Shown one piece after another: positions 36,001 to 39,000 of a DNA stretch of 64,000 nucleotides (position 1 is the first letter of the stretch; each line of letters begins with the position of its first letter). This stretch comes from a virus (Duplodnaviria > Heunggongvirae > Uroviricota > Caudoviricetes). The stretch lies in IMG/VR virus record IMGVR_UViG_646311923_000012; one strand, given 5' to 3'. Made by a program: the position numbers.

Positions 36001-39000
36001 TAACGCTCTGAACGATGCACGTTACCAGGCGAAATACGTTTCAGCCATCTGGCAAAAACTGCTCCCGAGTCAGGCTGATTTTTGATGTTCAACCCATATC
36101 GCCGCCCACCAGCTATAGTGGCGGCGGTCATGCTGTAAAGGCACGTGACCACATGTACGAATTAACTCTATCTCCAGCAGAGATTAAAGAGATCACGAAA
36201 TACGAGCGATACACAAAACAGCAACACCAGTTAAGACTGCACGGCATCCCATTTGTAATCGGCCCTAAAAACGAACCCATAGTTCTCCGCAGGGATATTC
36301 CACACGGTCTGACAACGATGCCAAAAACATCTGAACTGGTTTCTGCTGAACCCGATTTTGAGGCGCTGAACAATGGGAAGACCAAGAAAAAATAAAAAAG
36401 ATAATGTACTGCCACCGCGGGTTAGATCGAATGGTTACAGTTACGTGTGGAAACCCGAAGGAAGTACAAGAAGTATAGGGCTAGGAAGAGTGCGGAAAAC
36501 CAGCGTAGCTAAAGTCTGGCAAAATTATGAACTGGAAAAAGCAAAACTCCACAACATAATGACCGTAGCTAAATTATGGCACATGTTTATGGACTCCCCT
36601 GCATTTACAGAACTGGCCCCCCGAACCCAAAAAGATTATCGACAACATCAGAAGGCGTTGCTGATGGTATTCGGAAAAGTGCTTGCTGATAATGTCAAAA
36701 CTGAGCAGGTAAGAATTTTCATGGATAAACGAGGGCTTGAGAGCAAGACCCAGGCAAATCATGAACTGGCAAGCCTGAGTCGAGTATACGGGTGGGGATA
36801 TGAGCGTGGGTATGTGAAGAATAACCCATGCAAAGGAGTCAGAAAATTCTCTCTTAAAGCCCGCACTGTTTACATCACCGATGAACAGTATGCGGCGATA
36901 TATGCGGAAGCAATTCCACAGTTACGCATTGCAATGGAGATTTCCTATCTCTGTGCGGCAAGACTCGGTGATGTGCTTGAGTTGAAATGGCAGGATATTA
37001 TGGATAAAGGGATCTACATTGAGCAAAACAAAACCGGCACCAAACAAATCAAGGAATGGTCACCGCGATTACGTACAGCGATCCAGTTAGCCCGAAATGT
37101 ATCTTCCTGTACATGCGAATATGTGATCAATACAACCAAAGGCGGGAAAGTCATAGCTAAAACGCTGAATAACTGGTGGAATCAGGCTAAACGCGCAGCC
37201 GAGCAAAAAGTTGGCGTTCCGTTCGGGTGCAATTTTCACGACATAAAAGCCAAGGGGATCTCAGATTACGAAGGCAGCAGTCGCGACAAACAAATTTTCA
37301 GCGGGCATAAAACAGAAAATCAGGTGTTGATTTACGATCGTAAAACAAAAATCACACCAACACTGGATTTGCCGCTCGTGGTTAGCAAGTAGACAATCCA
37401 GAAAAATTTCTGGCAAAAAGACTTGGTATACTAGCTATGAGCAACTTCCTAATACCTTGATTTTTCTTGGTGTTAAATTTGATTAACTTTTCAGCAATTT
37501 CACGTATTGCACTGATTTTTATTTGTTTTTCTTCGGTCTTGAAAACCGGCGACCCGAAAGGGTTCCAGAGTTCGAATCTCTGCGCTTCCGCCAAATAATC
37601 AAGGGGTTACCAAATGGTAGCCCCTTTGTTTTTTGGCTCTTGGTATAAACTTGGTATACCAATTGGTATATTTTTATTCGGATGAGATTATCGGTCATGA
37701 GCGGAACCTCAGGTTCCTCGTCTGATGCCGCTCTTGCAACACGTTACGCTGCCGAGTATTTTTGTAAAACATGGACTGCTCCAGGCCTGAACCAGGCAGA
37801 AGGATACAAAGCTATCTCAGATCTGTCACATCACTATTTTCGTGCAGAAGGCTCTAGCCCTCCCCAATCAATGGCGACAGGTATAAATAAGGTTCGTTGT
37901 GATGCAGGAATGAAAGAGAAACATGTAAACTCACTGGATATATTTACACATAGTTATCCAGAAATTTATGCTGGAGTAGCATTAACACTTGCAGGAGTAT
38001 GCAGTAAAGATAAACAGGCGATGTATAATATTACACAAGAAACCGTCCGTATCCTTCACGAAACTGAAACAAAAGATTGAACATTCTCAATAAAGAGCTG
38101 CGCCAAGCAGCACATATTCTGCATTGCAGTAAGATATGCATGCCCAGCCCCCTGTAAACCTATAAATATTTCAAATCACATTGATCATCTTATAGCCATA
38201 TTTTTTGTGACACCCTGTTTCAGTGAACATGAAGACACTCACCTTGTTCCTGATATTCATTAGCATCATCCTGATTATTTAACTTCTCTATTCAGGGAAG
38301 CCCGTCTGATACAAAGCTTCTATTTCTCGTTAAATATTCTCCATTCTGGCGCCAAGCCCTATCTATAGCTGATTGAAAACAACTCTAAAAACGCAATAAT
38401 ATCAAATAGTTTATTCCTACAGCCGATCATTTTGAGTAAAATATTGACGAGAATTTCACAAAAGGTAGATTTCATGCAAACGGATAAATTAGACTATCAC
38501 ATAAAGTTCTTATAAGGTTATCTATATGATAAATAGCATTAATTCTTTTTTTTCCAGCATTCCTCGCAGTATATCAAGTGTTACGCGTAACAGTAGCTTC
38601 ACTGCCTCACAGCACAAAAGCACACCTAACACGGTAAAAACCAGCTCACCTCTTTCTCCCAGCAACAGTCCTGCCAGTGCAACAACTATTTTTAAGGTAA
38701 AAAATTCTTATACGGAATCAGGACTTCAACGTTCCACATCTTATACTCAGTCAAGTATAGAAAAAAACGCTTTACATCGGCCTCTACCTGATGTGGCCAA
38801 ACGCCTAGTGCAGCATCTTGCAGAGCATGGCATTCAACCAGCCCGGAATATGGCTGAACATATTCCTCCGGCACCTAACTGGCCTGCGCCAACGCCGCCA
38901 GTACAAAATGAACAATCAAGACCTCTGCCTGATGTGGCTCAGCGTCTGGTGCAGCATCTTGCAGAGCATGGCATTCAACCAGCCCGGAATATGGCTGAAC

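Follow-up and report, generated by a model that had tools for sequence, protein, structure and literature searches.

Tandem dilysogens of phage lambda, as accounted for by the Campbell model, carry their prophages in the same orientation at one attB, with an attP-type site between them and attL and attR at the outer ends. Integration sites within tRNA genes reportedly include an anticodon-loop class, distinguished by Williams in 2002, in which the crossover is said to take place in the anticodon loop. Two or three prophages in tandem at serT (serT_1-3) are recorded for closed genomes of CC119 Escherichia coli that produce Shiga toxin (STEC) in the pertinent passages of a report (Microb Genom 2023, PMC10132054), and the corresponding passages of an O121:H19 STEC study place serT among the prophage integration sites and list four sites with tandem pairs. 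For the prophage Sp4 of E. coli O157:H7 Sakai, the circularised form was detected after mitomycin C treatment and its attP was sequenced (Asadulghani et al. 2009, PMC2669165). Here, a site of this kind is described from a window of 64,000 nucleotides (the whole stretch of DNA that was analysed; IMG/VR record IMGVR_UViG_646311923_000012, Caudoviricetes), the source of which is a Shiga-toxin-type E. coli. The segment at 37393-37685 is very probably the internal junction of two different lambdoid prophages, called A and B below, which lie head to tail in the tRNA-Ser(UGA) gene serT, and as such it constitutes a complete attP held in the chromosome. An earlier note on this DNA had proposed an attP-like junction of two tandem prophages with the same integrase specificity, and both the alignment of three attachment sites and the corresponding loci of two complete E. 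coli O103 chromosomes (ML775 and the O103:H2 strain 129) bear this out.

The layout of the site emerges from a four-way alignment of the attB of E. coli K-12, the site at the intact serT, the window junction, and the site on the yccA side, followed by exact-match extension. A 65-bp block is common to all four sequences (K-12 attB and the three att sites). In the window, this core occupies 37534-37598 (plus strand) and consists of serT nucleotides 29-88 followed by AATAA, in exact, ungapped identity to K-12 attB; its first 60 nt (37534-37593) are an exact copy of that part of the 88-nt tRNA gene. The 141-bp spacer between the end of int and the tRNA copy (37393-37533, plus strand) is the int-proximal, P'-type arm, from prophage A. 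This arm is unrelated to the K-12 sequence upstream of serT nucleotide 29 and shows a single-base difference (37509) from the ML775 arm between the int of prophage B and the yccA-side serT fragment. On the other side of the core, the int-distal, P-type arm (37599-37685, plus strand), from prophage B, equals the phage arm that directly follows the intact serT in ML775, the match extending to 37685 where K-12 differs, and it is also matched in phage Evi. Set against K-12 attB, the att sites read B-O-P, P'-O-P, and P'-O-B', the middle one being the window junction, a pattern by which the junction is read as a complete attP made of the int-side arm of A, the core, and the int-distal arm of B. Neither ARAGORN nor Rfam calls a tRNA at 37534-37593, so the 5' part of serT is truly missing at the junction, as had been claimed; Rfam returns nothing else in the junction, and no promoter was found in a scan of 37300-37800. 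The lengths of 140 bp for the distance between int and the tRNA copy and 59 nt for the copy, given in the earlier note, are each one base short, while the spacer and the exact tRNA-Ser copy themselves stand.

All copies of the att site are identical across the core, leaving the crossover unmarked by sequence polymorphism; on this alignment, strand exchange must fall within the 65 bp. The block of identity extends from serT nucleotide 29, which is one base into the anticodon stem, as far as the 3' end of the tRNA, and from this we infer that the crossover takes place in the anticodon loop. The loop itself (CTTGAAA, 37538-37544, plus strand) is the predicted 7-bp overlap region and is flanked by the inverted repeat of the anticodon stem, (C)GGT and ACC(G). 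In ML775, the phage arm comes after a complete serT of 88 nt, showing that the tRNA gene is rebuilt on integration.

A repeated motif, distinct from the core sequence, is found on both arms. The motif TTGGTATA occurs on the plus strand at 37423-37430, 37640-37647, 37651-37658, and 37663-37670 and in inverted orientation at 37655-37662 (minus strand). These five copies are all that the 64 kb contains, compared with an expectation of 0.93, and none of 100 shuffles reached five; the 9-mer CTTGGTATA is present exactly three times in the window, every time at this site. Arm-type sites that differ from the core are a requirement of lambda-type enzymes, and for this integrase the CTTGGTATA repeats are the evident candidates. 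The int-proximal arm has one such candidate Int-binding site (CTTGGTATA, 37422-37430, plus strand), 104 bp before the core. The int-distal arm has three direct candidate sites, CTTGGTATA, CTTGGTATA, and ATTGGTATA (37639-37670, plus strand), with a spacing of 11 and 12 bp and an inverted copy at 37655-37663. The presence of repeats on both sides had been recognised beforehand, with one copy placed at 37422-37429 and three at 37639-37669; these positions are offset by one base, and the inverted copy had been missed. Phage Evi keeps the int-side CTTGGTATA, and so do the arms L073 and L075, which are more diverged. A second int-side candidate, CTTGGTGTT at 37466, was dropped, as it reads CTAGGTGTT in L073 and L075. 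Most IMG/VR matches end 3 nt past int and are uninformative for the arms. In one further locus, where the integrase is 96% identical (L065 2517-2830), the repeat reads CCTGGTATA in the int-side arm, and the other arm, which is different and has a single repeat, also carries CCTGGTATA, so that the change is seen on both arms.

Beyond E. coli, a cross-genus pattern scan with one genome per species, in which the serT 3' end had to be followed by two repeat copies, returned seven loci. In these loci and in a Salmonella contig, two to three copies of the repeat stand at the same distance after serT, with a spacing of 11-13 bp and different spacers. The repeat-bearing serT loci belong to Cedecea, Dryocola, Pluralibacter, Buttiauxella, Enterobacter, Salmonella, and a metagenome-assembled genome; the repeats after serT recur in seven other enterobacterial genera, between which the spacers and the downstream sequence differ. 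In Enterobacter, a 2.4-kb remnant lies between serT and a second serT 3' fragment, and it contains a lone TTGGTATA about 100 bp before that fragment, similar to the window. The Dryocola repeats have an integrase of 66% identity and an ExoVIII-like gene next to them. The integrase of Dryocola boscaweniae (L091 784-3236) lies approximately 1 kb from the intact serT, on the side of the repeat triplet, and is transcribed towards the tRNA, a placement opposite to that in the window. This locus also has a fourth site, TTGGTATACTAGC, about 95 bp beyond the triplet, with 13-nt identity to the int-side site of the window.

The site can also be compared with attP sequences that are already known. In the deposited genome of phage Evi, int, arm, core, arm, and espV' are contiguous, at 94% identity to the window and with all repeats in place. 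The published attP of Sp4 is the reverse complement of window 37528-37602, except for two letters lost in the machine-read supplement. Of the four primers published for the Sp4 attP, three are exact matches to the window and one has a single mismatch (spans 37481-37703 and 37378-38257). The Sp4 quantitation primers anneal at 37481 (plus strand) and 37682-37703 (minus strand), facing each other across the junction, and would yield a 223-bp product from this chromosome itself.

The integrase gene of prophage A (int, 36373-37392, plus strand) encodes a tyrosine integrase of 339 amino acids of the lambda Int type. Residues 1-319 align end to end to lambda Int 1-340 (E 5.6e-20), and the alignment covers the N-terminal arm-binding segment (residues 1-60, MGRxR..LPP..NGY..GLGR), while the catalytic domain (PF00589) is the sole domain that Pfam detects. 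Equivalents of lambda R212, K235, H308, H333, and Y342 are present. Upstream of int, and overlapping its start with its own 3' end, is an Xis-like gene (36153-36395, plus strand; 80 amino acids) with a DUF4224 domain (PF13986, E 9e-9). Both products are 100% identical to those of Sp4 of O157 Sakai, the integrase to ECs_1055 and the Xis-like protein to ECs_1056, which is annotated as 'phage excisionase'. Two IMG/VR integrases (L082 and L083) are 75-77% identical overall, the differences lying mainly in residues 17-60 of the arm-binding domain. They were searched as possible sources of diverged attP copies and dropped, as neither a serT fragment nor TTGGTATA was found downstream of int in either and the N-terminal domain has diverged. 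These integrases probably use another site, and the pattern points to a change in arm specificity or in site inside a single integrase lineage.

The two prophages flank the junction in the same orientation; each has its own set of lambdoid late and early genes, with the late genes on the minus strand. Prophage A is represented by its right-hand 37.5 kb (1-37533, minus strand), which is colinear with ML775 at 98.3-99.6% identity and whose features follow the ML775 annotation; it is a lambdoid prophage with head genes of the HK97 type and int at its right end. Prophage B is represented by its left-hand 26.4 kb (37599-64000, minus strand), which is colinear with ML775 at 96-97.7% identity, as supported by annotation and by the gene order of Sakai Sp4. 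It is an Sp4-like lambdoid prophage with genes for tccP2, a tail fibre, J, sodC, the tail, a lambda-type head, and terminase. Its first cargo gene beside the arm is an espV 3' fragment (37688-38080, plus strand), as annotated by RefSeq in the identical ML775 sequence. A and B are different phages and not a duplication, because one has HK97-type head genes and the other lambda-type head genes. The first base of the window falls within A's tape-measure gene and the last within B's lysis region, which explains the lack of an intact tRNA and of a second int in the window.

The full locus can be followed in relatives. Four complete chromosomes of O103/STEC-group E. coli, ML775 and O103:H2 strain 129 among them, are 100% identical to the window over 2 kb around the junction, and the whole window is colinear with O103 ML775 at 96-99.6% identity. 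The order in ML775 is hyaA, intact serT, prophage A (52.9 kb), the junction, prophage B (49.6 kb), and yccA. There, prophage A carries espK, a tail fibre, and HK97-type head genes and prophage B carries espV', tccP2, a tail fibre, J, sodC, and lambda-type head genes, each with xis-int at its end; the right end of B runs through int and a serT 3' fragment into yccA. Strain 129 has the same outer ends. In both chromosomes, the tRNA is intact at one of the outer sites and present as a displaced 3' fragment at the opposite one, and the intact serT and second int that the earlier note had expected outside the window are located beside hyaA and beside yccA, respectively. The two integrases, whose comparison it had also proposed, share one protein accession in prophages A and B of ML775 (WP_001299351.1), the accession that stands, together with the same Xis-like protein, at the yccA end of strain 129, and the Xis-like proteins of A and B are likewise identical.

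Several observations weigh against the interpretation of the junction as a tandem attP with a working integration module. The intact serT and the second int are both outside the window, and none of the complete genomes in the collection is a 100% match over its whole length (for the right-hand 24.7 kb, the best identity among these genomes is approximately 98-99%), so the tandem arrangement in the source strain is extrapolated from near-identical relatives. The whole int-side arm is about 90% conserved, which means that the conservation of its single repeat is not discriminating. The integrase has a Lys at the position of lambda Int Arg311 (HxxR changed to HDIK; codons 289-292, 37237-37248). 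Because this Lys is kept in relatives at 66-97% identity, it is read as a family trait and not as a defect, and activity is implied by the circularisation of Sp4. Finally, the Xis of Sp4 was judged to be probably non-functional in the paper that describes this circularisation (PMC2669165).

Alternatively, the same structure may have arisen by a different route, with the second phage entering through RecA-dependent homologous recombination in the shared xis-int module. The module from xis to the core of A (36153-37598) shows 2 differences, at 36576 and 37509, in approximately 1,445 bases from that of B in ML775 (L003 28119-29563), and such a long and near-perfect substrate would be usable for recombination or gene conversion; a Campbell-type insertion via homology also leaves an intact attP between the prophages. 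The end sequence is equal for both routes, so nothing discriminates between them. Entry mediated by Int, at one of the hybrid sites, needs no special assumption, given that the incoming phage carries an active integrase for the site, and the homologous route is considered unlikely on balance. Across the whole 4.1-kb stretch from exo to the core, A and B are 92.5% identical; with a near-identical module, nearly all of the divergence is in the adjacent exonuclease genes. The step between the exonuclease genes and the module may be a sharp mosaic boundary or may result from recent gene conversion between the neighbouring prophages.

Much less probable is the idea that the window holds the attP of one free or circularly permuted phage, or that an assembly chimera joined attL and attR reads through the repeated int and att sequences. 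The layout is identical to that of a true attP, and near-identical 1.4-kb int modules could mislead a short-read assembler. Against both versions, the window has head, tail, and lysis genes in two full sets that differ from each other, and it is colinear with closed chromosomes. The same join is also found in other genomes: at least 80% of a 222-bp query spanning arm, core, and arm is matched in 79 of 5,426 complete E. coli genomes, a coverage that a single outer att site (attL or attR) does not reach. These facts leave the free-phage and chimera explanations with very little weight. The ordinary end of a single prophage (attR), in which the tRNA fragment would have bacterial chromosome on its right, would likewise present int followed by a displaced tRNA 3' fragment, as seen beside yccA in ML775, strain 129, and Sakai, but this explanation is refuted for practical purposes by the sequence from 37599 onwards, which leaves K-12 attB and matches the phage arm, by the effector fragments, tail fibre, J, and tail and head genes that come next, by the absence of yccA from the window, and by the colinearity with ML775.

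Under the favoured interpretation, an internal junction of two different prophages, a second phage with the same integrase module would have entered a serT locus that was already occupied; the order in which the two phages arrived is not readable from the sequence. Prophage A supplies the int-side arm and prophage B the int-distal arm, and with the shared 65-bp core between them a complete attP results. The catalytic and core-binding domains of the integrase would act at the anticodon stem-loop, whereas its N-terminal domain would bind the CTTGGTATA repeats, one on the int side and three on the other arm, with integration host factor (IHF) probably bending the DNA. Since Int and the Xis-like protein are the same in A and B, the junction should be usable as the attL of A or the attR of B. 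Excision of each prophage by itself, excision of both together via the two outer sites, and the formation of recombinants could follow, as the Campbell model predicts. The circularisation of Sp4, whose Int and Xis-like proteins are identical, backs these outcomes indirectly.

The arms contain further candidate elements of such a site. An IHF-consensus match, WATCAANNNNTTR, is located in the int-proximal arm (37450-37462, minus strand), and another abuts the core (37597-37609, plus strand) and is absent from the K-12 attB version. The consensus WATCAANNNNTTR has three matches in the 64 kb, two of which are in the arms of this site, all of them being consensus matches only. The int-distal arm also includes a terminator-like hairpin, a phage-borne copy of the serT terminator (37601-37636, plus strand), with an 11-bp stem, a 4-nt loop, and a T run. 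Paired changes distinguish its stem (37601-37626) from that of the K-12 serT terminator, and at the same position stems that vary yet still pair, with a T run, are seen in eight genera. The hairpin of the int-distal arm would terminate the rebuilt serT.

A more far-reaching proposal is that the permanent attP re-links the int of A to the int-distal arm and its hairpin, and that the junction serves in effector reshuffling and, through attP x attP recombination, as a landing pad for further phages. If this were the case, int of A would be controlled as in the free phage, by retroregulation of the lambda sib type, and the identical int of B, beside yccA, as in a prophage; the junction could also be a point of switching at which type III effector cargo (espK, espV', tccP2) is reshuffled among phages that share the module. 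This extension is regarded as quite doubtful.

The biology of the site is textbook, and its value is practical, for excision assays and for the calling of prophages. In strains with this tandem, the published PCR (polymerase chain reaction) for the attP of 'circular Sp4' would be positive from chromosomal DNA without any excision, and when the right-hand prophage excises, every resulting junction sequence is one that was already present; for these two reasons, induction assays need other primer designs. Prophage predictors can merge tandem pairs into one oversized 'virus'. An IMG/VR entry of 84.7 kb has the same junction (IMGVR_UViG_2913112809_000002, L047, 84,730 bp), in which this integrase lies internally, with the same core and repeat triplet after it, and the entry is apparently a tandem pair of prophages called as a single virus. 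Two effector-carrying phages with one module and one site are also well placed for the exchange of cargo, which is relevant to the assembly of effector sets in non-O157 STEC. In many O26-type and related genomes, the junction region is split by an element of the insertion sequence IS3 family (IS600-like) and the integrase is annotated in two pieces; in the O26-type genomes, the int of the left prophage is probably inactivated, with the identical int of the right prophage remaining.

Other features of the two prophages were observed away from the junction. In prophage A, Rfam identifies the DicF antisense small RNA upstream of dicB (32941-32992, plus strand) and the STnc100 small RNA (18009-18181, minus strand). 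Prophage A also carries a tRNA cluster (18951-19202, minus strand), in which ARAGORN calls Met(CAT), Arg(TCG), and Arg(TCT); the CAT tRNA is a tRNA-Ile in RefSeq, giving a cluster of the ileZ-argN-argO type, as in Sakai Sp4. In prophage B, the tccP2 region at 38781-39257 contains tandem repeats in a 141-bp register, and its alignment differs between the window and ML775, with the copy number of the repeats probably varying. RefSeq annotates tccP2 as two partial pseudogenes.

Compared with the systems described at the outset, the window presents a familiar structure. Tandem prophages at serT have already been published, a literature search that combined serT, yccA, and prophage gave no match, and the structure is the expected product of the Campbell model, with a known integrase at a known site. 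The passages concerned in the reports of serT tandems (PMC10132054 and the O121:H19 study) catalogue integration patterns and leave arms, core, and repeats undissected. The nearest relative is Sp4 of O157:H7 Sakai, whose Int and Xis-like proteins are the same as those of the window and whose attP sequence matches; prophage B additionally shares the Sp4 gene order, including sodC and the lambda-type head genes. The Sakai annotation gives Sp4 as a single prophage that extends from beside yccA, where the serT locus is positioned (the serT gene itself lies outside the compared stretch), and in Sakai its attP exists only after excision, whereas here the attP is permanent in the chromosome, with prophage A inserted between B and serT. 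With respect to the anticodon-loop class of Williams 2002, the likeness is that the part of the tRNA between the anticodon stem and the 3' end is carried by the phage and the gene is rebuilt on integration; there is no difference in kind, and in the present case a phage version of the serT terminator hairpin is carried as well. The tandem lambda dilysogens have the same layout as this locus, which resembles them further in its lambda-type Int and in the candidate arm-type sites on both arms. The locus differs from them in that two different phages are involved, with the integration module alone in common, in that the core is a 65-bp tRNA 3' segment rather than the 15 bp of lambda, and in that three arm sites are grouped on the int-distal arm, whereas in lambda the triplet is int-proximal.

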